Assembly: GCF_019464535.1 (NCBI RefSeq)
Contig: NZ_CP080507.1
Coordinates: forward strand, 1,560,001 to 1,592,000
Source of the DNA: Horticoccus luteus
GTDB lineage: Bacteria; Verrucomicrobiota; Verrucomicrobiia; Opitutales; Opitutaceae
Length of the DNA stretch: 32,000 nucleotides
Direction: 5' to 3'
Shown: positions 10,739-32,000 of the stretch, piece by piece
How positions within the stretch are numbered: position 1 is the first letter of the stretch
Layout of the letters: each line of letters opens with the position of its first letter
Notes under the pieces: model-generated
What the model was told of the DNA's origin: nothing
Database searches by the model: none
The model's input: the letters and a program-made list of their open reading frames with translations, nothing else
Made by a program: the position numbers and the translations under genes

Positions 10739-10752
10739 TATCTACACAACTG

Positions 10753-10914: not shown

Positions 10915-10933
10915 TCGATGCGTGGGACAGCAA

Positions 10934-10961: not shown

Positions 10962-11007
10962 TCCCTAATTATCCGAGCTTCAATAGTTGGAGCCCATCCA
11001 TTACCCC

Positions 11008-11958
11008 ATGAGCAACGTAAGCAAGCGGCTGATATATCAACGCACGGATTGGCAAATTCCCAGCACCGATCGGCTCCAGCAACTATTTCAGAGAGCACTC
11101 ACCCAACGTGCAGGTGATGCCCGTGCTCAGCCAATTAGTGAGGACGCTTCAGCGACCGCAGGGACGTGGCGAAAGATCACCTATGCCAGTGACAGGAATG
11201 GCTGCGCATTCGGCAAGCTGGTCCAGTTTACACACGGCTTGCGGCAGGAAACCGTGCGCGTGCGGCAAGATGGAGCGGAACCTCCGGAAGGTTCAGTCGC
11301 CGCGCCCGCTGGTGAAGAGTTTTCCGGCGGGGCACTCTACTTTTGCTTTGATGGCGATCACGTCGTCGTCGCCCAATCGCAGTCTTTGCGTATCAGTCAG
11401 CTTGAGGAATATCTCAATTGGCTCCTCAGAGAGCAGCTTCCAGCGGGGAACTTCGTCACGCTCCTCTCGCTTCCACCTGCGGCTGGTCGTCGCATTCTTG
11501 AGCGCACTCCCCCGACATCGGTGATGTTTTCCCGGCCAGTCGAACTTCCGAGCAATGATCAAACCGGCGCGGCGCAGTTTAATCGTGATGCGAAAATCGA
11601 TGCCCTTCAAACGTTCCTTGGAGTGGACGACCTCCGCACGATGATGCCACACGACGTCGCTGCGGGAGGGCGTGTCCAAACGTCCATACGATTATGGTGG
11701 ACGAAGAAGACGGGCGGCGTTCGCCCCGACGAGTTCTTGCAAGGTTTGGGGCGGGTGGGTTTGCGGATGCTCGACGAAGACCCCTCGGTCGACATTGCGG
11801 TCGATGTTGGGGCTACTACGCTCACCAGGCGCCAATTAAGCATGGCTGAGTCATGTTCGATCGCATTGGTCGAGGGGCGGGTTCCGCCGGAGACGGTCTG
11901 GGATAGGATGTTGCGATTTTTAGCGCGGTTGCGGGAACGCGGAGAGATCCTAGACTGA
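11008..11958 (+). CDS. 316-aa soluble protein of unknown function; candidate sensor of a RexAB-like two-gene exclusion cassette
   Basis: ATG 11008 (the track ORF begins at TTG 10987). No TM segment and no assignable catalytic motif. Atypical codon usage (ATA, TTA, CTA, AGT, CAA, GAT frequent) and lower G+C than the flanks. GGALYFCFDGDHVVVAQSQSLRISQLEEYLNWLL recalls lambda RexA FLFVEGDTIGFARTVFGPTTSDLTDFL and an RdgC segment, by eye only. Confidence 0.65.
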   Translation: MSNVSKRLIYQRTDWQIPSTDRLQQLFQRALTQRAGDARAQPISEDASATAGTWRKITYASDRNGCAFGKLVQFTHGLRQETVRVRQDGAEPPEGSVAAPAGEEFSGGALYFCFDGDHVVVAQSQSLRISQLEEYLNWLLREQLPAGNFVTLLSLPPAAGRRILERTPPTSVMFSRPVELPSNDQTGAAQFNRDAKIDALQTFLGVDDLRTMMPHDVAAGGRVQTSIRLWWTKKTGGVRPDEFLQGLGRVGLRMLDEDPSVDIAVDVGATTLTRRQLSMAESCSIALVEGRVPPETVWDRMLRFLARLRERGEILD

Positions 11959-11968
11959 CTCTGTGCGT

Positions 11969-12496
11969 ATGAAAAAGGAGAGCGGCTTTCTGGTCTTGAT
12001 TGGTCTGCTCGGAGCAGGGGCGGGTGGCTGGGCCGCGGACATTTTCGGCGCGAGAGCCGTGGGCAGCCTCCTGATGTACTCGGGCGGATTGGCCACCGCC
12101 TTCTTCTTTGTCGCACGAATGATAAACGCGGCCTTCAATGCAATGACTGAATTGCAAGCGTTTGATCGGCTGACGCGCGACAGGTATGAGCTCGCGATCC
12201 GCACGCTTCGGAGGCGCTTCATCGTGCGCTTGATAGTCGGACTCGCCCTTTCTTTCCTGACCGTGGGAGCAGGTGTGCTCCTGAAAGAGGCGGTGGCCCA
12301 ATCTACAAGGATGACTATGAGCCTCGCAGCTTTTGGAGGAGCGGCGCTGTTGGTGGCAGCCGTTATGGTTGGCGCACAGCTCTGGGCTGCCAGTTGGGCA
12401 GGCGATTACATTGCAGAGTGCAAGCGCATAGCTCGCGAGCAAAACTCTACGCGGGAACGTCTGGCTAATTATTCTCTAGGAAAGCTGCACACCTAA
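11969..12496 (+). CDS. 175-aa four-TM membrane protein; candidate effector partner
   Basis: ATG 11969 (GTG 11963 is an alternative), 10 nt after the upstream stop. Hydrophobic helices are FLVLIGLLGAGAGGWAADIF, AVGSLLMYSGGLATAFFFVARMI, IVRLIVGLALSFLTVGAGVLL and MSLAAFGGAALLVAAVMVGAQLW. Arg-rich central loop and charged C-tail. Tandem TAATAA stops. Confidence 0.7.
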   Translation: MKKESGFLVLIGLLGAGAGGWAADIFGARAVGSLLMYSGGLATAFFFVARMINAAFNAMTELQAFDRLTRDRYELAIRTLRRRFIVRLIVGLALSFLTVGAGVLLKEAVAQSTRMTMSLAAFGGAALLVAAVMVGAQLWAASWAGDYIAECKRIAREQNSTRERLANYSLGKLHT

Positions 12497-12652: not shown

Positions 12653-12901
12653 ATGACCCCGCCTCGGCCCACGCCGCTTCTCGGATTTGAGACGCCTTAC
12701 GTCAAGGCAGGAGACGTCGTGCTCCCGGTTCTCGCGGGCGTAGGCAAGGACGCCGAGCTGTGCGCCACACCCGCGATGTGGCGGCGCATCTTCGACGTCC
12801 TGGAGCCGCTCGTGCGCGAGGCGCGCGGCGACGCGGGCTCCGCTGTTCCTGCTTCGGTCGGCCGCGCGCCGATCCTCAAGCCCAGCCGCCGCATCCTCTG
12901 A
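12653..12901 (+). CDS. hypothetical protein (82 aa)
   Basis: Track ORF with high GC3 and GGGGG 3 nt upstream of the ATG. No motif recognised. Confidence 0.5.
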   Translation: MTPPRPTPLLGFETPYVKAGDVVLPVLAGVGKDAELCATPAMWRRIFDVLEPLVREARGDAGSAVPASVGRAPILKPSRRIL

Positions 12902-12911
12902 TTTTTCCACC
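12898..12911 (+). promoter_or_regulatory. conserved intercistronic 14-mer CTGATTTTTCCACC (copy 1)
   Basis: Identical 14-mer at 25279-25292. Here its TGA is the stop of the upstream ORF, and the holin-like ATG follows 12 nt downstream. Confidence 0.35.
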
Positions 12912-12922
12912 CGTATCCAACC

Positions 12923-13117
12923 ATGAAAGACACCATCCTGTCCCTCATCCGTCACGGCCTCACCTTTGGCGGCGGCTTCCTCGCTGCCAAGGGTCTCATC
13001 ACCGAGCCCACGCTCGCGACCCTCGTGCCCGCCGTCGTCGCTGCCATCGGCGCGATCTGGGGCGCCAGCGACGAATACCTCGCCGCCAAGAAGGCGAAGG
13101 CGACGCCCGCCGCCTGA
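12923..13117 (+). CDS. holin-like small membrane protein
   Basis: 64 aa. Two hydrophobic segments (GLTFGGGFLAAKGLI and LATLVPAVVAAIGAIWGA) and a Lys-rich C-tail. It heads a block containing spanin-like genes. The call is compositional/positional. Confidence 0.5.
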   Translation: MKDTILSLIRHGLTFGGGFLAAKGLITEPTLATLVPAVVAAIGAIWGASDEYLAAKKAKATPAA

Positions 13118-13119
13118 CC

Positions 13120-13431
13120 ATGTGGGCCGCGGTCACCGCCATCTTCACCGCGCTCGCCGAGTGGCTGCGCCTGAAGCAGCTCACCGCGGCCTACGATCTC
13201 TCCCGTCGTATCGAAACCGACATCGAGGCCGATGAAACCGCGCTCCTCCTGCTCCGCCATCACACTGACGATGATGCTCAGCGTGCTGCTGACCGGCTGC
13301 GGCAGCGTATCATCCGGACCCAAGGCGTCGCCGTCTGCGCCGCTCAACATCTACCAGCCGCGGGTGCTCCTGCTCAAGGCGGGCCAGCCAATCCAGACGG
13401 CGGCGGGGATCTACACCCCGCAAACGGATGA
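13120..13431 (+). CDS. possible i-spanin-like / lysis-associated protein overlapping the next gene
   Basis: 103 aa. N-terminal hydrophobic WAAVTAIFTALAEWL, then a charged helix. GC3 is high only for the first ~45 codons, after which the +1 frame carries the codon bias. Confidence 0.4.
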   Translation: MWAAVTAIFTALAEWLRLKQLTAAYDLSRRIETDIEADETALLLLRHHTDDDAQRAADRLRQRIIRTQGVAVCAAQHLPAAGAPAQGGPANPDGGGDLHPANG

Positions 13432-13525
13432 GACCTGGCACAGCCCGGCCGCATTCGAAGCACTCGAACAGGAAACCCTGAACCTTTCGGCCGCGCTCGC
13501 CCAGGAGCGCGCCCGCACGAAATGA
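13232..13525 (+). CDS. lipoprotein (o-spanin-like), starts inside the preceding gene in the +1 frame
   Basis: 97 aa. MKPRSSCSAITLTMMLSVLLTG|C lipoprotein signal. GC3 about 85-90 % from 13232 onward. ATGA overlap with the next gene. Confidence 0.65.
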   Translation: MKPRSSCSAITLTMMLSVLLTGCGSVSSGPKASPSAPLNIYQPRVLLLKAGQPIQTAAGIYTPQTDETWHSPAAFEALEQETLNLSAALAQERARTK

Positions 13526-14001
13526 TCCCGCTCTTCGCCCAAACCACGCCGTCGCCCGCGGCCGTCGCCTCCTTCGTCAATGTCGTCGAGGTCGCGGCCT
13601 GGCTCGCGGTCGCCTTTGCCGCCGTCGTCGTCGCCTGGCGGCAGATGACGGGGAAGAGCGAGGAAACGCGCATCAGCCCATCGCCCCTCGAAGTGAAGCA
13701 ACACGCCCGCCTGGCGAAGTGGGAGGAGCTGGAGACGGTGAAGGCCGAGGCGCACGGCCGGATCAGCCGCGAGCGCAAGGAGATCGACGCCGCGATCGTC
13801 CGCGTGGAGCAGCAGCAGCGCGCGCTGGGCCTGCGCATCGACGACGACCTGCGCGAAATCCGCGACGCGATGCAGGCCAATAACGAGGCCGCGGAGAAGC
13901 GCGTCGAGCGGATCAACGCCCGGCTCGACAACCTCAACACCGTCGTGACCGACCTGCCCGGCCGGATCGTGGGCCTGATCGATGGCGCGAAGCACCTCTG
14001 A
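13522..14001 (+). CDS. membrane-anchored coiled-coil protein (Mu gp25/DUF2730-like or i-spanin-like)
   Basis: 159 aa. One TM (VVEVAAWLAVAFAAVVVAW), then a long charged helix (EELETVKAEAHGRISRERKEIDAAIVRVEQQQRALGLRIDDDLREIRD...). Confidence 0.55.
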   Translation: MIPLFAQTTPSPAAVASFVNVVEVAAWLAVAFAAVVVAWRQMTGKSEETRISPSPLEVKQHARLAKWEELETVKAEAHGRISRERKEIDAAIVRVEQQQRALGLRIDDDLREIRDAMQANNEAAEKRVERINARLDNLNTVVTDLPGRIVGLIDGAKHL

Positions 14002-14003
14002 CC

Positions 14004-14261
14004 ATGTCGCCGCTCGTCATTCGCAAAACCATTCTCGCCGAACTCGCCGCCGCGCCCGTCGAAGGGCTCACGCAGGCCGGGCTCCTCACGCTCGTCGCGC
14101 TGAAGCTGCCCGGTGTCACCATGGCCGATCTCGCCGACGAGCTGTCCTGGCTGCGCGATCACGCGCTCGCCGTCTTCACCGCGCATCCTCTCGACGAGGA
14201 CAACCGCGAACTGCGCACCTGGGCCGTGACCCAGCCCGGCCGCCTCGCTCTCAAGCAATGA
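14004..14261 (+). CDS. hypothetical protein (85 aa), possibly winged-helix
   Basis: Track ORF with high GC3. It is 2 nt after the upstream stop and has an ATGA overlap with the downstream ATG at 14258. Confidence 0.5.
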   Translation: MSPLVIRKTILAELAAAPVEGLTQAGLLTLVALKLPGVTMADLADELSWLRDHALAVFTAHPLDEDNRELRTWAVTQPGRLALKQ

Positions 14262-17302: not shown

Positions 17303-18853
17303 ATGCCACGCGCAAAGAAGACCACGTCCCGCATCGACGCCGAGCGCGTCCGGCTCGCGCTGATGGGCAGCGAGAACATGATTCGCGGCCTCTCCGCGGA
17401 ACGCCTCGCGCGGGCGCTCGACGATTTCCGCCGCGGTTGGCTGCGCGAGGCCGCCGTCCTCTGGCAGATCATCCGCGAGCGGGATGACACGACGCTCGCC
17501 GTCACGGAAAAACGTGATCTCGACGCAGCGCTCCTGGATTACGAGATTCTGCCGGTCGACGATTCGCCGGAGGCGGAGAGAGACAAGCAGGCGCTCAAGG
17601 CTGCCTACAACGGGCTCACCGCCACCGATGCACTCGACCAGAACAAGCGCGGCGGCGTCGCGGCGCTGATCAAGATGATGATGCACGCCGTCGGTCACCG
17701 ATGGGCGGTGTTCGAGCTGATTTGGGACCCGAGCGGAGAAGACCTCACGGCAGAATTTCGTTTTGTGCCGCTGCAATTCTTCGAGCACACGGTCGGGCGG
17801 TTGCGCTTCCTGCCGGTCGAAGGCGCCTATCAGGGTGAGGACTTGGAGGACGGTGGCTGGATGGTCGTCTGCGGCCCCGGCCTCATGCAGGCCACCAGCA
17901 TTGCCTATTTTTTGAAGCGCTCGCCGCTCCGTGCGTGGGCGATCCTCTGCGACAAGTTTGCGGTTCCATATCTGCACGGCGAATCGTCGGCCCAGGTGGG
18001 CTCGAAGGAATGGAACGCGTTTCGCGATGCGCTCGCTTCGCTCGTCAACGACGGCGCGGTGCTCACGTCGCCGGGTGCGAAGATCACGCCGATCACCATC
18101 ACGGGCGCGGAAGCCCCGGCCGAGGCGCTCGTCGATCGTTGCGACCGCGGGATCACGCGCATCTGGCGCGGCGCCGATCTCGGGACGATGAGCAAGGACG
18201 GCGCGGCGGTCGGTTCGAATCCCCAAGCGAGCGAAACCGACATCTTGTCCGCGGCCGACGCGCAGAACATCAGCGAGACGCTCAACTACTATTTCGATCG
18301 TCAGGTGATCCGGTATCGGTTCGGCACCGAGCCGAAGGCGTATTTCAAGCTCAAGCCGCGGACGAAGATCAACCAGGACCTGCAGCTCAAGATCGACGAC
18401 CAGCTCATCAAGTGGGGCTGCAAGCTCGGGATCAAAGACCTGATGGAGCGTTACGGCCGCGCCGAGGCGGACGCCGGGGAGGAGGTCGCGATCGCCTCCG
18501 TGCCGCCGAGTCCGTTTGAAGCCCAGGCTTCTACGGCCGTCGTTCCGGCTGCCTTGGTCAACGAAGCCGCCAGCAATCGCGTGGCGCTCGTCGCCCGCGC
18601 GGCGGCCCAAGCCCGACCAGCCGAGCAGGCGATCCTTGATCCGATCCTTCGGCGCCTCGCGGCGATCGAGGCGATGCCCGATCCCGCCGCCCAGCGGGCC
18701 GCGCTCCAGGAGCTGCGCGCCGCGTGGCCGGTGCTCGGTCGCGCCGCGCTCCAGCAGGTGCCGGCCCTCGCCCAAGCCATCGAGCAGGCGATCGCGCCCG
18801 CCGTCGTCAGCGGCCTCGCCGAAGTCCCGAAATCGTCGCCCCAAAACGCATGA
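17303..18853 (+). CDS. portal protein, Mu gp29-like (DUF935-type)
   Basis: 516 aa, starting 2 nt after the TerL stop. The N-terminus LSAERLARALDDFRRGWLREAAVLWQIIRERDDTTLAVTEKRDLDAALLDYEILP matches the DUF935 pattern by eye. Confidence 0.8.
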   Translation: MPRAKKTTSRIDAERVRLALMGSENMIRGLSAERLARALDDFRRGWLREAAVLWQIIRERDDTTLAVTEKRDLDAALLDYEILPVDDSPEAERDKQALKAAYNGLTATDALDQNKRGGVAALIKMMMHAVGHRWAVFELIWDPSGEDLTAEFRFVPLQFFEHTVGRLRFLPVEGAYQGEDLEDGGWMVVCGPGLMQATSIAYFLKRSPLRAWAILCDKFAVPYLHGESSAQVGSKEWNAFRDALASLVNDGAVLTSPGAKITPITITGAEAPAEALVDRCDRGITRIWRGADLGTMSKDGAAVGSNPQASETDILSAADAQNISETLNYYFDRQVIRYRFGTEPKAYFKLKPRTKINQDLQLKIDDQLIKWGCKLGIKDLMERYGRAEADAGEEVAIASVPPSPFEAQASTAVVPAALVNEAASNRVALVARAAAQARPAEQAILDPILRRLAAIEAMPDPAAQRAALQELRAAWPVLGRAALQQVPALAQAIEQAIAPAVVSGLAEVPKSSPQNA

Positions 18854-21954: not shown

Positions 21955-22413
21955 ATGCCCGCTTGGATCGCACTCACCGCCGACGCGCTCAACGCGTATC
22001 TCGTCGCCGCGCAGCTCACTGCGCTGCGCACGAAAGCCCTCGCGCCTGGACAAGCCGATCCTTTCACCGAGATTGCGCCGGACATCATTCGGAAGGTCCG
22101 CAGCTACATCGCGTCCAACCCGGCGAACGCGGTCGACGCCGACGAGCTGACGATCCCGCCCGAGCTGAAGACGGACGTGTGCTATCTGATTCTCGGCCCG
22201 ATGCTCGGTCGGCTCGGCATCGGCCTGACCAAGGATCAGGCGCAGCAGGTCGAGGTCGCGCGCAGCACGCTTGTGGCGCTGCGGGATAAAAAGCTCCTCG
22301 TCACTCGCCCCGCTGATGCGGTGACGCCCGACGTCCAGGGCGAAGGCGGCGTGACGATCGTCAGCGCGCCTCCGCGCGAGATGACGCGCGAATCCCTGGG
22401 AGGGCTCTTTTGA
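21955..22413 (+). CDS. head-tail adaptor, Mu gp36-like (DUF1320-like)
   Basis: 152 aa. ITADALNAYLVAAQLTAL...IRKVRSYIAS...ELTIPPELKTDVCYLILGPMLGRL...ARSTLVALRDKKLLV fits the gp36/DUF1320 pattern by eye. First gene after the capsid. Confidence 0.5.
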   Translation: MPAWIALTADALNAYLVAAQLTALRTKALAPGQADPFTEIAPDIIRKVRSYIASNPANAVDADELTIPPELKTDVCYLILGPMLGRLGIGLTKDQAQQVEVARSTLVALRDKKLLVTRPADAVTPDVQGEGGVTIVSAPPREMTRESLGGLF

Positions 22414-23240
22414 TGACCGACGTATTTCCATCGCTCCCGCCGGCGCGCCCGGTGTTCAGCCGGCCCGGCGGAAAGACCAGGATGCTGAAATACATCCTGC
22501 CGCTGATCCCGCCGCACACGTGCTACTGCGAGCCGTTCTTCGGCGGCGGCGCCGTGTTCTTCGCGAAGCCGGAGAGCCCCGTCGAAGTCATCAACGATCG
22601 CGACGCGAGCCTGACCGCCCTCCTGCGCAACGCGAAATACCACCTCGACGCGCTGCTCGATGAGACGGACCTGATCCTGAACGCACGACGCGAGTTCGAG
22701 GACTTCGTCGAGCAGGAAGGACTCACGGAGATACAGCGCGCCGCGCGCTGGTTCGTCCGCAACAAGCTCTCGTTCGGCGGCAGCGGCGCGAATTACGCGA
22801 TCGTGCGCACGCAGCCGCTCCCGTCGCGCACGAACCGCATGGTCGCGCTCCGCTCGCTCTCCGCGCGCCTCGATCGCACGAGCGTCGAGCAACGCGACTG
22901 GGCGCAGATCGTCGGGGCTTACGATGCGCCGGGCACGTTCTTCTTTTTCGATCCGCCGTATTTCGACGACGGCAGCGCGGCCTACGTCGGTTGGACGGAG
23001 GACGAGCTGCGCGCGTTCTGCACCCGCATCCAGCAGCTCCAAGGCGCGTGGATGATGACGTTCCAGGACTGCGCGCAAATCCGCGAGATGCTCGCGGGCT
23101 ATCCGATCCAGGCGATCCAAAGGGCCAACGGCATTGGCAACCGCACCGGCAAGCGCGGTCGCACGTATGCCGAGGTGATCATCACTCACCGATGCAAGCC
23201 GGTCGCACGCAACGCGGCAAAGAAAGGGCGCACCGCATGA
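22413..23240 (+). CDS. dam: Dam-family DNA adenine methyltransferase (MethyltransfD12)
   Basis: 275 aa from ATG 22413 (TTG 22410 is an alternative). FSRPGGKTRML, EPFFGGGAVFF and FFFFDPPY are the hallmark D12-class motifs. Confidence 0.85.
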   Translation: MTDVFPSLPPARPVFSRPGGKTRMLKYILPLIPPHTCYCEPFFGGGAVFFAKPESPVEVINDRDASLTALLRNAKYHLDALLDETDLILNARREFEDFVEQEGLTEIQRAARWFVRNKLSFGGSGANYAIVRTQPLPSRTNRMVALRSLSARLDRTSVEQRDWAQIVGAYDAPGTFFFFDPPYFDDGSAAYVGWTEDELRAFCTRIQQLQGAWMMTFQDCAQIREMLAGYPIQAIQRANGIGNRTGKRGRTYAEVIITHRCKPVARNAAKKGRTA

Positions 23241-24061
23241 TCGTCAACCGCCCCATGCCTTTCGTCGAGGCGCTCGGCGCCGCGCACGCGCGATCGCTGT
23301 TGCCGACCACCGGCCGCACCGTCGATCTGCAGCAGCTCGACGGTGGCGTGAAGCGGCGGGCGATGATGTCGGCCACCGTCGACACGGTGCAGCGCCTGCA
23401 GGAATATGCCGATGGGGTCGACTCGCTCCTGGCCGGCAACAAAAGCGAGGCTGAGGTGCGCGCCTGGCTGAAGGAGCAGATCGCCGCCGCCGGCTACCAG
23501 CCTGACCCGGAGCAGCGCGGCGGTCTCCAAGACCTCGGCTCGTCGCCCCGGCTGAACCTCATCCTGGAGACCAACGTCGCCACGGCGGAGGGCTACGGCC
23601 GTTACGTGCAGGGCGTGCAGCCCGACGTCCTCGACGAGTTCCCGGCGCAGGAGCTGTTCGACGCCGCGCCCGGTGGCGAACACCGCCGCGACTGGGCCGC
23701 GCGGTGGCAGGCGTGTGGCGGCGAGTTCTTCGGCCGTCGCATGATCGCGCTCAAGTCCGACCCGGTCTGGTCGCGACTCGGCGATCCGGACCGTTTCCCG
23801 GATGGGCTTGGCAACCCGTATCCGCCGTTTGCGTTCAACTCGAAGTGGGACGTGCGCGACATCGATCGCGACGAGGCGATCGATCTCGGCCTCCTCGCGC
23901 CCGACGAGACGGTCCCGGCGCCGACCGTCGACGACTTTTCCGCCGACCTGCAGGCGCCGCCCGACGTGCGCTCGTCCTGGCTGCGCGAGGCGATCGTCGC
24001 GCAAGGGCTCGGGCAGTTCGACGCCGACGGCGTGCTGCATTTCGCGGGAGGTGGGGGATGA
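23237..24061 (+). CDS. MuF / SPP1 gp7-like minor head (head morphogenesis) protein
   Basis: 274 aa from ATG 23237 (ATGA overlap with the dam stop). PFVEALGAAHARSLLPTT...VKRRAMMSATV, LNLILETNVATAEGYGRY and NPYPPFAFNSKWDV match MuF-family landmarks by eye, although the usual Cys residues after PP.H.N are absent. Confidence 0.6.
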   Translation: MIVNRPMPFVEALGAAHARSLLPTTGRTVDLQQLDGGVKRRAMMSATVDTVQRLQEYADGVDSLLAGNKSEAEVRAWLKEQIAAAGYQPDPEQRGGLQDLGSSPRLNLILETNVATAEGYGRYVQGVQPDVLDEFPAQELFDAAPGGEHRRDWAARWQACGGEFFGRRMIALKSDPVWSRLGDPDRFPDGLGNPYPPFAFNSKWDVRDIDRDEAIDLGLLAPDETVPAPTVDDFSADLQAPPDVRSSWLREAIVAQGLGQFDADGVLHFAGGGG

Positions 24062-24736: not shown

Positions 24737-25282
24737 ATGCCCTTCCTCGCGACCACCGACCTCCTCAACGCCGTGAAGACGGCGCTCGCCTCGATCGGGC
24801 TGCCCGGCGGCCAGCCCGAGGAGAAGCTCTTCGAGCGCGTCGAGTTTCACGAAAACAAGCGCCTGAAGGAGGCGCTCACCCAGCTCGTCGTCACCGAGCA
24901 GCGCGTGGCGATCATCGTGCCCGGCGGCCACGCGTTCACGAACGTGAAGGAGGGCCGCACGATCCGGAGCATGCGGCGGTCGACCTTCGACATCCTGATC
25001 GCCGATCGCGACTGGGCCGACAACGGCCAGCAGGCGGTCTTCGGCGGTCCGGATGCAATTGGTGTCCTCACGATGGGCGACCTGGTCGTCGACCACTTCG
25101 CGCAAAACCCGCAGCTCGGTCTCGCCTACGTGGCGCTGCAGGTGGAGGACGGCGCCTCGATCACGCTCGCCGACGACGAGGTGAAAGACAGCCCCGGCCG
25201 CGAGTGCTTCGTCCTGGCTTACTCCACGCCGAGCGGCGAGCGCGTGATCCGCCCCACGCAGCCATGGGCCGAACCGGCCTGA
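24737..25282 (+). CDS. neck/tail-completion protein (Mu gp37/DUF1834-like)
   Basis: 181 aa. Position and weak pattern similarity only. Confidence 0.4.
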   Translation: MPFLATTDLLNAVKTALASIGLPGGQPEEKLFERVEFHENKRLKEALTQLVVTEQRVAIIVPGGHAFTNVKEGRTIRSMRRSTFDILIADRDWADNGQQAVFGGPDAIGVLTMGDLVVDHFAQNPQLGLAYVALQVEDGASITLADDEVKDSPGRECFVLAYSTPSGERVIRPTQPWAEPA

Positions 25283-25320: not shown

Positions 25321-25863
25321 ATGAACACAGCCCGAAAAGTCATTGGCTCGCACGCCTTCTTCTTCCCCGACGGCGCGGCGTTTACGGTCCCCAATCCCGG
25401 CGGCGTCTGCGGCCGCAACCTCAAGCCCGGAGCCACCGATACCGGTTGGTTCGATCTCGGCGTGTCGAAGTGGAAGCACTCGCCGACGCACAAGATCGAA
25501 GATTTCGATGCGCCATCGCCCGGCGCGCGGATGCTCTACGACCGCATCGTGACCCGCAAGGGCAAGAAGCTCTCCGGCACGCTCATGGAGATGAGCAACC
25601 TCACGTGGCAACTCTTGATGGCGAGCCAGGAGCTGCCGCTCACCGGCGCGGGCGGTCAGTATAATCCGCTCGCCGGCGATCCGCTCATCCGCGGCTGGCT
25701 GCAGCTCCAGGACTACGATCAGCACAACACGCTGATCGGCACGACCGATTACTTCGTGTCGCTGGAGTTGCCCGGCGATGTGGAGTTTGGCGACAGCGCG
25801 CTCGATATCGGCGTCGATGCCTACGTGCTCTTCAGCCCATTGATGACGGGCTCGCTGAGCTGA
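25321..25863 (+). CDS. major tail tube protein (non-contractile tail type)
   Basis: 180 aa from ATG 25321. Beta-rich composition, and size and position are typical of siphovirus tube proteins. No sheath-sized gene lies nearby. Confidence 0.55.
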   Translation: MNTARKVIGSHAFFFPDGAAFTVPNPGGVCGRNLKPGATDTGWFDLGVSKWKHSPTHKIEDFDAPSPGARMLYDRIVTRKGKKLSGTLMEMSNLTWQLLMASQELPLTGAGGQYNPLAGDPLIRGWLQLQDYDQHNTLIGTTDYFVSLELPGDVEFGDSALDIGVDAYVLFSPLMTGSLS

Positions 25864-25867: not shown

Positions 25868-26695
25868 ATGGCCGCGCCCACCACCGACGCTCCCGCCGCC
25901 ATCGCGCTGCCCGCCGCCGCCCCGGTGGAGGAGCAGCCCGCTGCGATCGCGCTTGCGGATGCCGCACCGACGGGCGCGGCGCCGGCGGCCGTGGCGCTCA
26001 CTCCGGCAGCTCTGATCGAAGATGCCCCCGTCGGCATCGCCGGTGCGGCTGCGGCGCCCGACGCCACACCGCCCGCCGGGATCGCCGTCAGCGGCAACGC
26101 GCCGGTTGAGGAGCCGCCGGAGGACATTGCGACCGCAATCGCTCCACCCACCGCCGCTGCGCCCACCGGCCACGCGTTGCCCGATACCACCCCCGCGGCC
26201 GGAGCGCCCGCTGCCGTGGCGCTGTCGGCCGCGGCACCCACGGCACTCGCCCCGGCCCGCGCACCGGTCGGCGTTTTTCGCCCCACCGCCGAGCCGCCCC
26301 GCGCGCGCGGCTACACCGTCACCACCTCCGATCCCACCGACCTCAACGTGAATACACCCATCCTCCGAATCGAAGGCGCTCTCGCCCTCAACGCCATCCG
26401 CGGCCAGACGCGCCTGCCTGCCGCCTCGATCCTCACACGCGTGCAGGTCGAGATCCAGGAGCCGCCCGTCGGCGCCGGCGCAGAGATCACGCTCGTGGAT
26501 GCCGACGGCGATCCCGTCGGCGTGCCGCCCGTCACCGTGGCCATCGCCGACGGCGAGACCTTTGGCGAGACCGTGCTCGCCACGCCGGTCTCGCTCCTGG
26601 CGGGAGCCAATCTCCGGGCGAAGGTCACCGGCATCGGGAGCGAACAGCCCGGCGGCTTCGCCACCCTCACACTCTTCACCCAGCTCGGCGCTTGA
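25868..26695 (+). CDS. Ala/Pro-rich repeat protein with a C-terminal beta-rich domain
   Basis: 275 aa. About 8 degenerate ~15-aa units (PAAIAL / PAAVAL / PVGIAG / PAGIAV ...) fill the first ~150 aa, followed by a ~120-aa non-repetitive domain. Starts 4 nt after the tail-tube stop. Confidence 0.6.
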   Translation: MAAPTTDAPAAIALPAAAPVEEQPAAIALADAAPTGAAPAAVALTPAALIEDAPVGIAGAAAAPDATPPAGIAVSGNAPVEEPPEDIATAIAPPTAAAPTGHALPDTTPAAGAPAAVALSAAAPTALAPARAPVGVFRPTAEPPRARGYTVTTSDPTDLNVNTPILRIEGALALNAIRGQTRLPAASILTRVQVEIQEPPVGAGAEITLVDADGDPVGVPPVTVAIADGETFGETVLATPVSLLAGANLRAKVTGIGSEQPGGFATLTLFTQLGA

Positions 26696-26717
26696 GCCGG
26701 CACCCCCTCCACTTCCT

Positions 26718-28694
26718 ATGAAACGCTTCCTCTTTCTTCTTTCGTTCCTGGCCGCCGCGCTCGGAAGCGCGATGGCGCAAACCGTCGCCATTCCGTGGCG
26801 CAACATCAGCCTCACGCCGACGACGCTCTCCGGCTACGGCATCACCGATGCGCAGCCGCTCGACAGCGACCTCACCTCGATCGCCGCGCTGTCGACCACG
26901 ACCTTCGGTCGCTCGCTCCTGGCCTTCGCCAGCGCGAATAGCTCCGTCCTTTACACCGATGGCTCCGGCAACTGGGTGCTCGGCACTACGCTTCCCGCCG
27001 TCTCCGGCGCGAATCTCACCGCGCTCAACGCATCGCAGCTCACCACCGGCACGCTCCCCGCCGCGCGTCTGCCGGCCTTCACGGGCGACGTGACGACGAG
27101 CGCGGGCAGCGCGGCGACCACGCTCGCGACGGTCAACAGCAACGTCGGCACCTTCGGCAGCGCGACGCAGTCGCTGACGCTCGCACTCGACGCCAAGGGC
27201 CGCATCACCTCCGCGGCCGCGCAGGCGATCACCCCCGCGTGGAGCGCGATCACGAGCAAGCCGACGACGCTAAGCGGCTATGGTATAACGGATGCGTATA
27301 CGTCGCCCACCGTCGACCAGATGGTGAGCGCGCGCGTTGTGCGAGATGCGCTTTATAGCGACGGTGCGACGAGCAACCGCGCGGTGGTGTGGACACCAGG
27401 CATTAGGGGCGCCGTCGCAGGCCAGTCGATCACGATCCCGTTCGAGTTCGACGTGCCGACGAGCAATCCATCGACCGCCTCGCGGATCGCCGCGTTCGTG
27501 CCCACCGCCACGACGGCGGTCTTTGCGGCCGCCAACTCGCTCGAGGTGCTGCTCTACACATCGGGCGGGCTACTCATCCGGCAACTGGGCACCACGACGT
27601 CGGATTACCGCCAGTTTGAATGGACTGGCTTCCGCGCAGCCTATTCCGGCGCCAAAGGGTTGCGCGGCGCGGTCGTGTTCACCGGCAACTCCACGAGCAC
27701 GCCCACCGTCTTTGTGCAGGGCGCGGACATATCGGCGAACTTCACCGCAGCGACCGGCGGCACGCCGCCCAATTGGATTCCGTCGGGCTTGGACACTACT
27801 GTCTTCCTCGTCGGCTTCAATTGGCCGTCCGGCCGATTGGTTCCGCATGCTCCCAGACTCGGCGCGTGGACCGCGAGTGAAGCGGCCGAGTGGAGTTCGA
27901 CGGGACGTGTGCCTGTGTGGGACGAGACCAATGCAGGCAATGCAGCGAAGCTCTCCAGCGACTTTGCGACCTCGACCGGCTGGGTGCTGACCGGCGCCAC
28001 GACGATCTCCGCCGGCAAGCTAAACCTCTCCGCCAGCGACAGCGCGTACATGTCAGGATCGCCCATTTTCGCCGGCACAAAATACACGTTCACGGTGAAC
28101 GTGGATTCGGTCACCGCGGGCTCGGTGAATTACTACAACGGGGCAAGCTATATCTCCTTCGCGACCGCGCCAGGCACCTACACGATCAGCTTCACGGCCG
28201 CTGCCACCTACCTGAGCGGTGCGGCCCTGCAATCGCAGGGAGGCAATGCGGTGTGCGACAACTACACACTCCGCGTTTTGGGGCCGCTCTTCCGGCCGGT
28301 AGTCCAGCCGATTGCGATCGTCGCCGACGCCACGACCAACGGCATCGCCGGTGTGCTGACCGGCATGACGCCGCTCACGACCCGCCGCGACTGGGTCATC
28401 CAGGCTAACACGAGCACCAACGGCAACCAGCAGCTCCTCGGCGCGTCGCCGTTCTTCGACTACACGCGCAACGTCATCGACGATTGGGTGGTGAACAACA
28501 AGGGCGGCAGTTCACGCACCATCTCCCTCGGGTCGGCTTCCGGCGGCTCGCAATACCTCTCGGGCGGCACGGCCGCCGGCGGCCGCAATGTGCCCACGCT
28601 CGCCACCCGCGTCATCGGCTCGTCCACGCTCTGGGTCAACAGCAACGGCACCGACTCCCTGCAGCACACCATTCGCGGCCACCTCGTCGACTGA
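26718..28694 (+). CDS. tail-fibre-like protein with an N-terminal Sec signal peptide and a CBM-like C-terminal region
   Basis: 658 aa from ATG 26718. MKRFLFLLSFLAAALGSAMA|Q (AxA site). Two copies of the tail-fibre motif PTTLSGYGITDA (about 26815-26852 and 27258-27296). A GDVTTSAGSAATTLATVNSNVGTFGS...LDAKGRIT fibre-type segment. The C-terminal half has a carbohydrate-binding-module-like composition. Confidence 0.7.
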   Translation: MKRFLFLLSFLAAALGSAMAQTVAIPWRNISLTPTTLSGYGITDAQPLDSDLTSIAALSTTTFGRSLLAFASANSSVLYTDGSGNWVLGTTLPAVSGANLTALNASQLTTGTLPAARLPAFTGDVTTSAGSAATTLATVNSNVGTFGSATQSLTLALDAKGRITSAAAQAITPAWSAITSKPTTLSGYGITDAYTSPTVDQMVSARVVRDALYSDGATSNRAVVWTPGIRGAVAGQSITIPFEFDVPTSNPSTASRIAAFVPTATTAVFAAANSLEVLLYTSGGLLIRQLGTTTSDYRQFEWTGFRAAYSGAKGLRGAVVFTGNSTSTPTVFVQGADISANFTAATGGTPPNWIPSGLDTTVFLVGFNWPSGRLVPHAPRLGAWTASEAAEWSSTGRVPVWDETNAGNAAKLSSDFATSTGWVLTGATTISAGKLNLSASDSAYMSGSPIFAGTKYTFTVNVDSVTAGSVNYYNGASYISFATAPGTYTISFTAAATYLSGAALQSQGGNAVCDNYTLRVLGPLFRPVVQPIAIVADATTNGIAGVLTGMTPLTTRRDWVIQANTSTNGNQQLLGASPFFDYTRNVIDDWVVNNKGGSSRTISLGSASGGSQYLSGGTAAGGRNVPTLATRVIGSSTLWVNSNGTDSLQHTIRGHLVD

Positions 28695-28703
28695 GCTCCA
28701 CCC

Positions 28704-29039
28704 ATGAAAATGTTACGCTTCCTCTCCCTCTGCCTACTCTCCGTCATCGCGTGCGGCAGCCTGTTCGCGCAAGACGACACGCCCGCGGAGCCCATCGCCT
28801 TCGACGTGACGTTCTCCGCGCCTGTCGACGCCACACATTTCACGGCGTCCTCCGCGCCGGCAGTCGGCGCGCACATCCTCGCGATCACCGCCGAGGGGTA
28901 TGTTTTCCAACTCGTCGCCGAGGATGGGCATCTGCTCAACAAAGGCGCCGTCTTCGGCGTCAACGTCGCGGCGCCGAGCGAAGCCGCGGCCCCGGCCGAC
29001 ATCCGCGCCGCCATCGCAGCGACCATCCCCGCACCATGA
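28704..29039 (+). CDS. small exported protein / possible lipoprotein (111 aa)
   Basis: MKMLRFLSLCLLSVIA|CGSLFAQ is a signal peptide with a possible lipobox. ATGA overlap with the tail chaperone gene. Confidence 0.6.
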   Translation: MKMLRFLSLCLLSVIACGSLFAQDDTPAEPIAFDVTFSAPVDATHFTASSAPAVGAHILAITAEGYVFQLVAEDGHLLNKGAVFGVNVAAPSEAAAPADIRAAIAATIPAP

Positions 29040-29542
29040 CCGCGATCACCGACACCCCTCCGGCCCGCACAGCGATGGTCTTTGCGGGCGAAATCTTCGA
29101 TGGCGCCACCTCCGACCATCCCCTGATCCGCAACACCGCCGGTGAGACTTTCGCCGTGCGCGTGCGTGCCATGCCAGCGCGCCACCTGGGCCGCATTCTG
29201 CAGCTCTGTATCGACGAGGCCGCGACCGTCGAGTTCGTCACCCAGATCGCCGTCGTCGATCCCTCGACGGGTGTGCTCGCCGAGTGGAGCGCGGCTTCGG
29301 CCGACTGGGTCGACACGCTCGACGACGCCTCCCACGTGCTTCTCTATGAGGCGGCGAAGCGCCTAAATTTTATCCGCGCGGCGGCCTGGGCGGAGAGGCA
29401 GATCGCCGCGAAGCAATTTCAGGGGCCTCTCCTGATGAAAGCGAACCAGGCACTGAGCCCGCTCATGGAGCAGATGGTTGGTTTGATTCTCTCATCGTTG
29501 AAGTCGCAAGGATTACTGGGCGCACCTTCGACGAAGTCTTAG
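29036..29542 (+). CDS. tail assembly chaperone (gpG-like)
   Basis: 168 aa from ATG 29036, immediately upstream of the tape-measure gene. A -1 frame extension follows. Confidence 0.6.
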   Translation: MTAITDTPPARTAMVFAGEIFDGATSDHPLIRNTAGETFAVRVRAMPARHLGRILQLCIDEAATVEFVTQIAVVDPSTGVLAEWSAASADWVDTLDDASHVLLYEAAKRLNFIRAAAWAERQIAAKQFQGPLLMKANQALSPLMEQMVGLILSSLKSQGLLGAPSTKS

Positions 29543-29880
29543 ACGGCTACACGCTCCACCAACTCCTGCTCGTGCGCCGTGCGGAACGTCAGGCCGAAGC
29601 CCGTGCCGCTCTCGCGCAACTGCACGCCGCCCGGCAGGCCATCCCCGCCAGCCTCAGCGACAAATCAGAACAGCAGCGCCCCTTCGCCCTCTACGAGACC
29701 TCACTCATCGCCCAGGCCAACGGCACGTCCGCCAAGCCCAAACGCCGCTGGGCACCGAGCCAGAAGCGCCGGCCTCAGCCTGGGCCAAACGGCGGCGCCC
29801 ACGGCCCGGAGAAAGCCCAGACCGTGACGAGCGCCAGCAGCAGCACAAGCAGACCCACGATAATCACGCCCACACCGTAA
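29036..29880 (+). CDS. putative -1 frameshift product of the tail chaperone (gpGT-like)
   Basis: The -1 frame is open across the gpG-like stop and gains high GC3 from about 29518 (…ITGRTFDEVLDGYTLHQLLLVRRAERQAEARAALAQL…). There is no start codon before GTG 29572. It ends at 29880, 10 nt before the tape-measure ATG. The slip site is not identified with certainty. Confidence 0.45.
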
Positions 29881-29890: not shown

Positions 29891-32000
29891 ATGGCCGATC
29901 AAGACTCCACGCTCCAAATCCTCATCGACGTGCGCGCCCGCCTCGCCGCGATCGACGATTCGTTGCGCGGTCTCGGGCAGGTGGAAAAGGCCGCCGCCAA
30001 ATCCGGCGACGCGCTGCTGGAGCAGGGCAAAGCCGCCGCGGAGACCGGCGGCAAACTGCTCGACGCGGCCCAGCAGCAGACCGCGCTGGCGGAGGCATCG
30101 CGCGAGGCGACGAAGGGCGCCGAGGCGCAGCGCGATGCGCTGCACCAAACGACGCAACAGATCGCCGAAACGGCGGAGAAGATCGCGCAGACCGCGCACG
30201 AGCAAGTCGTGCTGCAGGGGGCGACGAAGGAGGCCGCCCAGGCGACCGCGGCGCAGGGTGCGGCGATCCAGCAGACCACCGCCCAGATCGCCACCACGAG
30301 CGAGCGCACGGCTGTGCTCACCGACAAGCTCCTGGAATCGCAGGAGGCTTTCCGCGTCGTGAAGGATGCCAGCACCTCCTTCACCGGGATGCTGCGCACC
30401 GGTCTCGGGATCGACCTCGCGCGGCGCGGTCTCGACCTGCTCGTTGGCACGCTCAAGGAAGCCGCCACGCACAGCTTCGAGGTGGCCGCCCAGCTCAAGG
30501 ACACCGCGACCAACATCGGAATATCGGTCGAAAGTTTCCAAGTGCTGCGCGACATGACGGTGAACGCGGGCGGCAGCGTGGAGGCCCTCACCGGTGCGCT
30601 CAACGACCAGCAGCGCAGCCTCGTGCAGGCCCGCAACGTCAACAGCGGCGCGGCCGCCGCCTATCGCCAGTTGAACCTCGATGCCGCGCGTCTCGCGAAC
30701 CTCCCGGTGGAGCGGCAATTCGAGCAGATCGCCTTCGCGATCTCACACGCGACCGATAAGCAGGCCGCCTATGCCGCGGCGTCGCAAATTCTCGGCACGC
30801 GCAATCTGCCGCAACTGCGGCAGGCGCTGCGCGACCTCGCGGTCGAAGGCTACGACAAGGTCAAGGAGAGCGCCGAGGGTGCGGGCCGCTTCATGTCGGC
30901 CGAGACCATCGCCCGGCTCGCGGCCGCCAAACAAGGGCTTGCCAATGGCAAAGACATCCTGACCGCCAAGATCGGCGAGGACTTCGCCTCGGCCCTGAAA
31001 TTCTTTGGCCAGGAAGTGACCGTGCCCCAGCCGGAGACGAAATCAGCCAAGGAAATCGATGCCGCCAAAAAGCAGGCGGAGCAGCGCGAGGCGCTGGCGG
31101 AGGCCACCGCCAAGCTCGCCAGCAACGAGCGCTCCCTCGCCGTCGCGCAGGCCGATGGCACTGCCGGCACCGCGGAGAAAGACTTCACGATTCTCGCGCA
31201 CCTCGCGCAGCAGAAGACGCTCCTCGAACAGATCGTGGCACTGCGCGAGGCCATGCCGCTGGCCATCGAGGATGCCGAGACCGAACCGAAGCGCGCCGAC
31301 GAAATCGACGCCTTGCGTGCGCGCATCCGCGCCCTCCAAAACGAAATTCAGGCGCGCAATGGCGTCGGACCGACGGCCTTCGACCAGCGCAAAGAAAAAT
31401 TTCGCGCCTTCAACGAACCGACCCCGTTTACGACGGCCACGAATCGGGACCCGCGACTCAACGCCAGCGAAGGCGTGGCAGCCGGCGCGATGGACTGGGT
31501 GTCCTCGCTCGGTTCGCAGGGCGATCAGGTGGCAGCCGCCATGCAGTCGAGCATCGGCGCCACGGTGCAGAGCATCAGCGAAGGCATTTACGGCTGGATC
31601 ACGGGGACCGAAAGCTTTGGCGATGCGATGATGAATCTGGGCAGCACGATCCTGCAAACGATGCTGCAGACGATCATCCAGATGGGGGTGCAATGGCTGA
31701 TCAACGCCGTGCTCATCAAGACGGGGATGATCTCGATCGAGGCGACGGGCGATGCGTTGCGCACCGCGCGCGTGGTCAAGGAAAATGCCGCTGAAGTGGC
31801 CACGCTGCCGGCCAAAACGGCCGGCGCGGCGGCCTCCGGCATCTCCAGCTACGGCGTGGCGCTGGCTTTTGGCGCACTGGCGATCGCCGTCGTGCTCGGA
31901 GCGATGAGCATGTTCGATACGGGCGGCTACACCGGCGATGGTGGCGTGAAGGAGATCGCGGGTATCGCGCACAGAGGTGAGGTGATTTTCTCCCAAGACG
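29891..32000 (+). CDS. tail tape-measure protein, C-terminal end beyond the window
   Basis: The frame is open from ATG 29891 to the window end (703 codons), so it is missing from the ORF track. Ala/Gln/Glu-rich helical N-part, hydrophobic segments (IIQMGVQWLINAVLI and GVALAFGALAIAVVLGAM) and GIAHRGEVIFSQ typical of TMPs. Directly follows the chaperone pair. Confidence 0.85.
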   Translation, partial: MADQDSTLQILIDVRARLAAIDDSLRGLGQVEKAAAKSGDALLEQGKAAAETGGKLLDAAQQQTALAEASREATKGAEAQRDALHQTTQQIAETAEKIAQTAHEQVVLQGATKEAAQATAAQGAAIQQTTAQIATTSERTAVLTDKLLESQEAFRVVKDASTSFTGMLRTGLGIDLARRGLDLLVGTLKEAATHSFEVAAQLKDTATNIGISVESFQVLRDMTVNAGGSVEALTGALNDQQRSLVQARNVNSGAAAAYRQLNLDAARLANLPVERQFEQIAFAISHATDKQAAYAAASQILGTRNLPQLRQALRDLAVEGYDKVKESAEGAGRFMSAETIARLAAAKQGLANGKDILTAKIGEDFASALKFFGQEVTVPQPETKSAKEIDAAKKQAEQREALAEATAKLASNERSLAVAQADGTAGTAEKDFTILAHLAQQKTLLEQIVALREAMPLAIEDAETEPKRADEIDALRARIRALQNEIQARNGVGPTAFDQRKEKFRAFNEPTPFTTATNRDPRLNASEGVAAGAMDWVSSLGSQGDQVAAAMQSSIGATVQSISEGIYGWITGTESFGDAMMNLGSTILQTMLQTIIQMGVQWLINAVLIKTGMISIEATGDALRTARVVKENAAEVATLPAKTAGAAASGISSYGVALAFGALAIAVVLGAMSMFDTGGYTGDGGVKEIAGIAHRGEVIFSQD

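Follow-up and report, generated by a model that had tools for sequence, protein, structure and literature searches.

The DNA considered here, referred to as the window, is a stretch of 32,000 nucleotides from Horticoccus luteus (Verrucomicrobiota, Opitutaceae; contig NZ_CP080507.1, positions 1,560,001 to 1,592,000 of the forward strand). It is a prophage with a GC content of 65%, carried on a 4.32-Mb contig. Within its tail module, three open reading frames (ORFs), termed ORF-A, ORF-B and ORF-C, lie between the gene for the tail tube and that for tail assembly chaperone G. ORF-B is a fibre-like protein that begins with a predicted Sec-type signal peptide, and ORF-C, the small protein encoded behind it, is predicted to be exported as well. 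A preliminary description of this DNA had taken the three genes for an insertion encoding exported proteins that may act on the envelope. Comparison with related phages shows instead that the cassette is a regular constituent of the tail module, and it may encode the side fibre of the group.

Organization of the tail locus

The three genes are tightly packed, with gaps of 4, 22 and 9 nt and an ATGA overlap between ORF-C and G (Table 1), as described before. The 180-aa tube protein has no Pfam or PHROG match and only a weak NCBIfam match (tail_tube_6XGR, E 0.12), and none of its 48 homologues carries a Pfam domain. An AlphaFold2 model, built from an alignment of 34 homologues (predicted local distance difference test, pLDDT, 74), was compared with the PDB using Foldseek, and the top 27 matches were all to proteins of the tube, tube-like or Hcp-like kind from phages, tailocins and injection systems. 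They had probabilities of about 1, with modest E values (1e-3 to 4e-2) and template modelling (TM) scores of 0.33-0.55. The tail-tube proteins matched include those of Douge, Bxb1, Mycofy1, Sf11, YDC107, YSD1 (6xgr) and lambda gpV (probability about 1, E 1e-3 to 1e-1, TM 0.4-0.55). By this model, the product has a tail-tube fold.

Downstream of the cassette, G lies directly upstream of the tape measure protein (TMP) gene in all relatives described below, and the overlapping G/T arrangement is also present in three of them (L001, L003 and L007). The T-frame peptide TGRT.DEVLDG(Y/F)TLHQLL is kept in L007. A single in-frame XXXYYYZ heptamer, AAATTTT at 29365, is found approximately 130 nt upstream of the point where conservation of the T frame sets in. 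The TMP gene is a long Ala/Glu/Gln-rich ORF with C-terminal hydrophobic segments, and it is syntenic with the genes for TMPs of 800-1070 aa in relatives. Because a tube fold is encoded upstream, and G, a -1 frame ORF and TMP downstream, the position assigned to the cassette between tube and G/GT is correct. Pfam, NCBIfam and PHROGs returned nothing for ORF-A, ORF-C or G, and sequence searches of the PDB with ORF-B, the tube protein and ORF-A, as single sequences and as profiles, gave nothing useful.

A scan for sigma-70 promoters and terminators inside 25868-29039 found no promoter-like site and no convincing terminator-like one, although verrucomicrobial promoters may differ from the sigma-70 consensus. 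The tight spacing and the lack of a detectable promoter or internal terminator agree with the earlier proposal of co-transcription with the tail genes. With intergenic distances of 4-40 nt and neither promoter nor terminator detected, the cassette must be expressed late, alongside the tail genes. Terminator-like hairpins with T-runs were noted on either side, one at 25265-25281, at the end of the gene preceding the tube gene, and one at 29349-29371, inside G and just before the AAATTTT heptamer where the -1 frame opens.

Table 1. Features of the tail cassette, its borders and the lysis cassette in the window
Feature	Position	Strand	Extent	Remarks
Tail tube protein	25321-25863	+	180 aa	Left border of cassette
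ORF-A	25868-26695	+	275 aa	No signal peptide
ORF-B	26718-28694	+	658 aa	Predicted signal peptide, fibre and receptor-binding region
ORF-B, signal peptide	26718-26777	+	aa 1-20	MKRFLFLLSFLAAALGSAMA; predicted signal peptidase I (SPase I) site AMA↓Q
ORF-B, shaft/fibre-repeat region	26778-27344	+	aa 21 to ~209	
ORF-B, two W..I..(K/T)PTTLSGYGITDA units	26814-26858 and 27258-27302	+		PTTLSGYGITDA at aa 36 and 184
ORF-B, predicted C-terminal receptor-binding region	27345-28694	+	aa ~210-658	Three beta-sandwich/jelly-roll domains
ORF-C	28704-29039	+	111 aa	Predicted signal peptide
ORF-C, predicted signal peptide		+	aa 1-22	Starts MKMLRFLSLCLLSVIACGSLFA↓Q; SPase I site SLFA↓Q
Tail assembly chaperone G	29036-29542	+	168 aa	Right border of cassette
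-1 frame (T) ORF	29350-29880 (open)	+		Overlaps 3' end of G; presumed GT frameshift product
Tape measure protein	29891-32000	+	N-terminal 700 aa in window	Runs off the end of the window
PF23987 holin	12923-13117			Lysis cassette
Lipoprotein with LLTGC lipobox	13232-13525			Possibly o-spanin
Coiled-coil protein	13522-14001			Possibly i-spanin

ORF-B, a fibre-like protein

ORF-B is fibre-like and is predicted to bind a receptor, as judged from its motifs, its profile matches and a structural model. The fibre motifs pointed out earlier are present, with PTTLSGYGITDA occurring twice and GDVT..AGS..LDAKGRIT once, and aa 92-229 match the tail- and head-fibre families of PHROGs (phrog_3018, E 5e-13; phrog_7389, tail fiber, E 1e-5). 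Many ORF-B homologues are labelled tail fibre in their sources or carry a Peptidase_S74 domain. Among cultured phages, a tblastn search with ORF-B recovered only a 68-aa shaft repeat, in the tail fibre of Acinetobacter phage ME3.

In the AlphaFold2 monomer model, the shaft has a low pLDDT, as is expected for a trimeric shaft, and the C-terminal part (aa 210-658) reaches 85-97 and is modelled as a concanavalin A (ConA)/LamG-like domain, a domain resembling carbohydrate-binding modules (CBMs) and a distal sandwich. Foldseek matches in the PDB were to Vip3 CBM-like domains, the CBMs of GH101 enzymes and CBM22, and in BFVD to ConA-like lectin, CBM-cenC and phage minor tail or baseplate proteins. 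The CBM-like C-terminal region that had been suspected is thus borne out as three predicted lectin/CBM-like sandwiches. No catalytic domain was seen in the model or among these matches.

The cassette in related phages

Relatives of the window amount to approximately 18 lineages of uncultured Mu-like siphophages, drawn from Verrucomicrobiota/Opitutaceae genomes and metagenomes, and their hosts are deduced from the labels of the metagenome-assembled genomes (MAGs). Loci are denoted here by numbers beginning with L, and the genes at the positions of ORF-B and ORF-C as slot B and slot C. Homologues of ORF-B led to L001, L003, L010, L011 and L012. Searches with the tube protein only, which are independent of ORF-B, led to L007-L009, L013, L014, L017, L018-20, L021/22 and L023-L026, and about 12 lineages were sampled in this manner; L007-L009 are Verrucomicrobia/Opitutaceae MAGs, and the tube searches also yielded L014-L022.

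At all loci whose downstream DNA could be read, the interval between tube and G held a large gene of fibre or spike type, in most cases with an ORF-A-like gene before it and a small gene behind it, and the order tube, ORF-A, signal-peptide fibre, small signal-peptide protein, G/GT, TMP recurs in relatives. The pattern holds at tube identities from 100% down to approximately 30% (L001, L021); the structural proteins of close relatives are 50-65% identical to those of the window. The GC content at third codon positions (GC3) is 0.83-0.85 in ORF-A, ORF-B and ORF-C and 0.79-0.92 in neighbouring genes, so composition shows no sign of recent acquisition.

The interpretation of the cassette as an insertion did not survive this comparison, which places it at the same position in all relatives examined, and its suggested origin by mosaic acquisition finds no support, given its native composition and universal presence. 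The latter suggestion had drawn on the codons of the second GYGITDA copy, which do read CTA AGC GGC TAT GGT ATA ACG GAT GCG TAT, but the local GC3 of 0.82 is within the range of the gene and gives no hint of transfer. The fibre gene had also been called out of place upstream of the tape measure gene. Because the cassette occupies this position in every relative and has a native composition, a fibre gene upstream of TMP is the norm for this phage group, which is itself uncharacterised. Such a gene order as the norm had been named beforehand among the observations that would count against the earlier interpretation, for a well-characterised group with structural proteins at this position.

The bodies of the slot-B proteins differ widely. 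Lectin sandwiches are present in the window, L003 and L001, a phrog_11393 fibre tip in L007 and L009, and Peptidase_S74 in L024, while the slot-B protein of L021 has a NYGAIGDGATDD motif and is a probable pectate-lyase-like spike, by motif reading of the sequence only. By sequence comparison, slot B behaves like a host-range locus, in which the bodies differ and the N-terminal part follows the lineage. In L014, an additional 660-aa protein without a signal peptide is encoded between the signal-peptide fibre and G (10012-11994), with C-terminal repeats that by eye resemble immunoglobulin-like (Ig-like) or fibronectin type III (FN3) domains.

These findings bear on the possibility that the cassette is a lysogenic-conversion moron, i.e., that ORF-B is a secreted, fibre-derived lectin or adhesin that helps the lysogen by adhesion, biofilm formation or polysaccharide capture. 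Exported and membrane proteins are known inside tail operons, as exemplified by lambda lom and bor and by HK97 gp15, which are likewise encoded in the middle of a tail-gene cluster. The lectin/CBM-like domains of ORF-B would suit such a role, as would the ORF-A domain, which is common to bacterial adhesins (see below). However, morons have their own promoter and terminator, a deviant composition and a patchy distribution, and none of these marks was found in the cassette: its genes are 4-22 nt apart, its composition is native and it is present in all relatives rather than sporadically. Moreover, versions without signal peptides occupy the same locus. A moron is accordingly considered very unlikely.

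Signal peptides of the fibre and the Gln at +1

Signal peptides were called by a heuristic for the n- and h-regions, together with conservation among homologues. The heuristic flags four of the 29 genes in the window: two lipoproteins, ORF-B and ORF-C. ORF-B has the n-h-c layout M-KR-FLFLLSFLAAALG-SAMA, followed by Gln at aa 21 (cleavage codons 26775-26780), and since this pattern is kept in relatives, the Sec-type signal peptide attributed to ORF-B earlier is upheld. For ORF-C, the signal peptide is likewise recognised by the heuristic, but the lipobox proposed for it (VIA↓C, aa 14-17) is not kept in its only clear homologue, L001-C, which has ALA↓G and lacks the Cys. The N-terminus of ORF-C can be read with V-I-A-C at aa 14-17 or with LFA↓Q, and other slot-C proteins have AxA-type sites.

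Conservation in slot B concerns the architecture of the N-terminus. Seventeen of the 18 slot-B proteins have an intact basic n-region, a core of 10-15 residues (mean Kyte-Doolittle hydropathy > 2.2) and a small-x-small site, and n-h-c N-termini were seen in 22 of the best 120 ORF-B homologues, while the signal sequences in slot B are barely alignable. Conservation of the architecture and not of the sequence is the signature of a signal peptide and not of a protein-protein docking helix. Gln occupies the predicted +1 position in 17 of the 18 slot-B fibres, across unrelated N-terminal modules (window, L001, L003, L006-L012, L014, L017, L021 and L023-L026), with L013 as the exception. Its fixation across such different module types is difficult to account for without actual cleavage at that position. 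Among the slot-C proteins, three of 11 have Gln at +1. In L024, the slot-B signal peptide (MKKLLQLLLYVLCASVVQLRA↓QNTF, 8168-8290) is 1 nt out of frame with the body, due to either a MAG assembly error or recent inactivation.

From these sequence features, the body of ORF-B likely ends up outside the cytoplasm, and we hold this with considerable confidence. The opposing explanation is that the hydrophobic N-terminus does not function in export; in an otherwise ordinary cytoplasmic side fibre, it might stay uncleaved as a helix for assembly or trimerisation, or tether the protein transiently to the membrane. Such a fibre would be in keeping with a locus that otherwise behaves wholly like a tail-fibre locus, and cytoplasmic assembly is, to our knowledge, the only route for the fibres of tailed phages. 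Nevertheless, the 18 N-termini have diverged and yet, the exceptions given above aside, all show a basic n-region and a hydrophobic core, with Gln behind a small-x-small site, and a signal of this kind is also present, independently, on the partner protein. Where homologues lack the signal, an ordinary N-terminal domain takes its place, and a segment so hydrophobic would be captured by the signal recognition particle or SecA. An N-terminus without a function in export is therefore regarded as unlikely. A dual start that would produce a cytoplasmic isoform was also considered and rejected; codon 19 is an ATG in the window, but L003 and L001 offer no second start, and none is conserved behind the signal.

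The +1 Gln of slot B mirrors the Q-rule of Bacteroidetes, in which Gln at this position is cyclised to pyroglutamate. The rule is described as specific to Bacteroidetes (PMC5837995; PMC10653852), and the Q-rule paper makes no mention of Verrucomicrobia; the rule is not known to have been reported for Verrucomicrobiota. Phages of Porphyromonas also encode Sec/SPase I substrates in which Gln is the +1 residue and which are believed to be envelope modifiers, and the residue was read as an adaptation to host secretion (PMC10367356). The P. gingivalis phage proteins resemble the slot-B fibres in being predicted substrates of this kind (PMC10367356; PMC5837995). They differ in that they have no assigned function and are not reported as fibres, in that their hosts are Bacteroidetes and not Verrucomicrobiota, and in that the ORF-C proteins studied here are mostly outside the rule.

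Signal-less fibres, a split fibre and co-variation

Several loci encode fibres without signal peptides at the same position. In L018-20 (tube 36-37% identical, GC 57-60%), the gene order is the same, and an 822-aa fibre that starts MSWNIEKPGDQINGP has no signal peptide, nor does the 107-aa protein encoded behind it. In L004 and L005, which represent a second phage type with a GP7-type capsid, signal-less homologues of ORF-B (P0003 and P0011) are found at the fibre position. L006, an Opitutaceae MAG of the same second type, has the fibre N-terminal domain as a separate gene of 285 aa, followed by a signal-peptide fibre and then by a small signal-peptide protein. Overall, fibre and partner are both signal-bearing in 11 lineages and both signal-less in L004, L005 and L018-20; the exceptions to this co-variation are L012, which is mixed (signal on the slot-B but not on the slot-C protein), and L011, which is ambiguous.

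A second kind of co-variation involves the gene upstream of the fibre. The tube protein of L024 shares 71% identity with its counterpart in L023, a locus with an A-type Ig domain and a QVTVPW-type fibre, but only 30% with that of L001. L024 nonetheless has the A'-type C-domain of L001 (58% identical) and a QN-type fibre N-terminus. By sequence comparison, the C-domain encoded upstream and the N-terminal module of the fibre move as a pair.

ORF-C and other small partner proteins

Following its signal, ORF-C consists of a small beta-rich domain of approximately 85 aa. It is homologous to L001-C (E 5e-8), which is also signal-bearing, and in 11 lineages (window, L001, L003, L006-L010 and L023-L025) the gene behind the fibre encodes a small protein with a signal peptide. 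The relationship of ORF-C to a family of longer slot-C proteins is suggestive only (E 0.06). Members of this long-type family occur with and without a signal, mostly in step with the state of the fibre. Small downstream proteins are also partly homologous across signal states: L010-C, with a signal, matches the signal-less C proteins of L004, L005 and L011 (E 1e-7 to 1e-12), and L006-C, with a signal, matches the N-terminal half of the signal-less L012-C (E 5e-10). Position and co-variation in sequence make ORF-C a candidate for a periplasmic protein that assists the fibre as partner or chaperone.

The slot-C proteins of L007 (3353-3847), L008 (10656-11120) and L009 (10968-11462) are of another kind, with a signal or anchor followed by a 100-aa Ala-rich coiled coil, which resembles an i-spanin and is unrelated to ORF-C of the window. 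A role of ORF-B and ORF-C themselves as lysis genes or spanins was rejected, as separate lysis genes lie elsewhere in the window (12.6-14.0 kb) and a coiled coil is lacking in ORF-C. L009 encodes a second protein with a signal peptide among its head genes (3475-3963), and this one contains the helical C-terminal domain seen in long-type slot-C proteins (E 5e-9 to 2e-15). Judged by sequence, it is apparently a paralogue of the partner protein, encoded away from the cassette.

ORF-A, an Ig-like protein behind the tube gene

ORF-A has no signal peptide, and the description of the cassette as encoding Sec-exported proteins does not extend to it; it is cytoplasmic and probably associated with the tail. 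Its first ~140 residues form a Pro/Ala-rich repetitive spacer, and the last ~130 residues (aa ~150-275) a domain that is conserved in relatives. ORF-A itself has no direct Pfam match. A word-indexed homologue search with the C-terminal domain found nothing, but an exhaustive HMMER search recovered 61 protein clusters, mostly of 100-350-aa proteins in which the domain is C-terminal, together with giant adhesin-like proteins that contain 5-15 tandem copies. Pfam families named on the giant multi-copy proteins P0141 and P0167 (the largest, P0128, being outside this step) were SpaA (prealbumin-like), SdrD_B, CarboxypepD_reg, Big_1 and invasin. These names indicate that the C-terminal domain of ORF-A is an Ig-like (prealbumin-like) beta-sandwich.

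ORF-A directly follows the tube gene in L003, L007-L010, L013, L014, L023, L025 and L026. Its N-terminal half (25868-26290 in the window) contains a variable number of repeats of ~18-20 aa of the type (D)NTAPxAV, which in most relatives are preceded by the short motif MPTPNFxHDNT (MPxPNF..NTxP), the copy in the window having degenerated furthest. Upstream genes with other C-domains begin with this motif as well, namely A' in L017 and L024 and a third type in L019. A frameshift fusion of tube and ORF-A is unlikely: the ORF-A frame is closed by a stop codon 10 nt before the ATG, and relatives differ in the spacing.

Position and co-variation in sequence make ORF-A a candidate tail-borne adaptor or decoration. 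Ig-like domains are displayed on tail tubes, as Fraser et al. are said to have described in 2006, and known decorations of the tube (the C-domain of lambda gpV, SPP1 gp17.1* and T5 pb6) are like ORF-A in that an Ig-like sandwich is encoded at or right after the tube. They differ from ORF-A as a candidate in that it is a separate polypeptide with a long repetitive spacer, in the +1 frame, and not an extension or frameshift product of the tube protein.

Models for a probably exported fibre

The closest known counterparts of the cassette are side fibres encoded with a partner, such as lambda Stf/Tfa, Mu S/U, P2 H/G and the L-shaped fibre of T5, pb1, with its Peptidase_S74 chaperone. Like these, ORF-B combines a shaft with exchangeable carbohydrate-binding C-terminal modules, is followed directly by a small gene and belongs to a locus that evolves as a mosaic with a lineage-specific N-terminal part; L024 even carries the S74 intramolecular chaperone. 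In contrast, the known fibres are signal-less, are assembled in the cytoplasm and are encoded downstream of the tape-measure and baseplate genes. Moreover, ORF-C has no detectable homology of the Tfa type, and ORF-B lacks an N-terminal domain for attachment to the virion.

The reading that we favour, though at somewhat less than an even chance, is that ORF-B is the true side fibre of this group, matured in the periplasm and joined to the tail at lysis. Starting from what is directly observed (the gene order, its conservation, the domain content and the tracking of signals between fibre and partner), the course of events might be as follows. ORF-B and ORF-C would be made late, with the tail genes, as Sec/SPase I preproteins, and both would be translocated to the periplasm and cleaved, leaving the fibre with an N-terminal Gln. 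There, the fibre may fold and trimerise with ORF-C. It would meet the finished tail, probably via the upstream adaptor, only once the holin opens the inner membrane. Until lysis, the pool of fibre could sit on the glycan receptor in the envelope of the infected cell itself, and the fraction that is never incorporated could continue to do so after lysis.

In its full form, this amounts to virion assembly in two compartments, with an exported fibre and chaperone, a Gln (possibly pyroglutamate) at the fibre N-terminus, capture by a tail-borne adaptor at lysis, which would thereby become the last step of morphogenesis, and a fibre pool that pre-occupies the receptor of the dying cell. We put this complete scheme forward more tentatively than the side-fibre role itself, as a possible rather than a probable course. 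Attachment of fibres after opening of the holin is unprecedented but, by analogy, physically plausible. Fibres attach to fibre-less particles in vitro in other systems. The endolysins fOg44 Lys44 and P1 Lyz provide a precedent for pre-positioning, as they are late, Sec-exported (Lyz by a signal-arrest-release, or SAR, sequence) proteins that are kept in the envelope until the holin fires, though they are muralytic enzymes and not structural or receptor-binding proteins.

A different explanation is that ORF-B is an exported protein that does not belong to the virion and acts with ORF-C. Secreted late, it would bind the glycan receptor or, in the spike-bearing relatives, degrade it, and thus spare progeny from loss on debris or block late superinfection, while the virion would rely on its central tail-tip protein alone. 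The signal peptides are of textbook type and conserved, and the partner usually shares the signal state of the fibre, which would place the action of both in one extracytoplasmic compartment. A domain for attachment to the virion is missing from mature ORF-B, and the tail module of relatives already holds a large tail-tip protein of 890-980 aa. The Porphyromonas phage substrates mentioned above, thought to modify the envelope (PMC10367356), point in the same direction.

Exported receptor blockers and envelope factors are well established and common among phages, giving this explanation a high prior. T5 Llp, the Cor proteins of T1, phi80 and N15, and P1 Sim are phage-encoded, exported by Sec (as is predicted here), active on the envelope and often encoded beside receptor-binding genes. 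They are, however, small lipoproteins or periplasmic proteins that are unrelated to fibres, expressed early or in lysogeny and accessory, whereas ORF-B is a 658-aa product of a core gene expressed late. Against a masking role, the cassette is universal rather than patchy, and the signal-less fibres at the same locus in L018-20 and in L004/L005 can only be cytoplasmic and are presumably virion-borne. In L006, with its split fibre, the virion would be left carrying a stub without function. The close gene spacing leaves no space for a lysogeny promoter, which makes classical superinfection exclusion in lysogens unlikely. ORF-B has no detectable domain in common with other proteins of the locus, so it is not a copy of the virion receptor-binding protein; a related idea, that ORF-B is a decoy copying the receptor-binding domain of the virion tip, was rejected after no similarity within the locus was found in nine loci at the sensitivity of BLAST. 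Taken together, the universal cassette, the signal-less fibres at the locus, the split fibre of L006, the co-transfer of modules and the lack of any other evident fibre-like domain or side-fibre gene in these loci suit a genuine virion fibre no less than a masking protein. Masking by a protein outside the virion is possible but somewhat doubtful, and the virion-fibre and envelope roles are not mutually exclusive.

Several points weigh against periplasmic maturation of a virion fibre. No virion-attachment domain was recognised in ORF-B, the mature N-terminus of which is a shaft repeat (IPW..I..TP), and the signal-less homologues P0003 and P0011 carry an N-terminal domain of ~150 aa where ORF-B has none. 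ORF-C is absent in L013 and L021, and L012 combines a signal-bearing fibre with a signal-less partner. The Ig-like domain of ORF-A on its flexible spacer could equally be a tube decoration and not an adaptor, and the co-transfer of upstream C-domain and fibre N-terminus could be plain genetic linkage. A need for disulfide-dependent folding was considered as a reason for export and rejected: ORF-B has one Cys, so such a need does not explain export. Finally, a literature search for tail fibres with signal peptides, periplasmic maturation or attachment at lysis found no precedent, the nearest report being that of the Q-rule proteins of Porphyromonas phages (PMC10367356), and because no case is known, the prior for periplasmic fibre maturation is low.

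Other features of the prophage

The window contains Mu-like head genes, with a Portal_Mu domain at 17303-18853 and a MuF-like protein at 23237-24061, and from 21955 to its end the genes on the + strand are spaced by almost nothing. A divergent early block on the - strand (3530-8404) encodes an HTH_17 protein (106 aa), an AAA_22 ATPase (452 aa) and proteins of 369 and 706 aa, the last two without family matches. This block and the Mu-like portal, protease and MuF genes fit a transposable (Mu-like) phage; no transposase domain was detected in the window. A megablast search of 12 kb against cultured phages gave no match, nor did tblastn searches of the tube protein, ORF-A and G against 50,697 phage records.

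The lysis cassette (12653-14261) is upstream of the terminase genes and separate from the tail cassette, and no endolysin was identified within it. A D12-class (Dam-like) adenine methyltransferase is encoded at 22410-23240, amid head-completion and connector genes, and is found at the same place in L003, L010, L011, L012 and L023-L025. In L026, genes for an acetyltransferase-like protein and a formyltransferase replace it at that position.

Implications

Tail fibres decide host range, and the textbook pathways for their assembly are all cytoplasmic. The whole phage group considered here has fibres, and usually partner proteins as well, with conserved predicted secretion signals. If these predictions are true, either virion assembly is completed across the inner membrane at lysis, or receptor-binding proteins are routinely turned into secreted envelope factors. 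Both outcomes would be new for tailed phages, and both would affect the recognition of fibre genes in metagenomes, where signal peptides have often been taken to argue against a structural role. For Verrucomicrobiota, from which almost no phages have been characterised, assembly of the virion in two compartments would, if it holds, be a lineage-wide trait of their phages that extends over at least two morphogenetic types.

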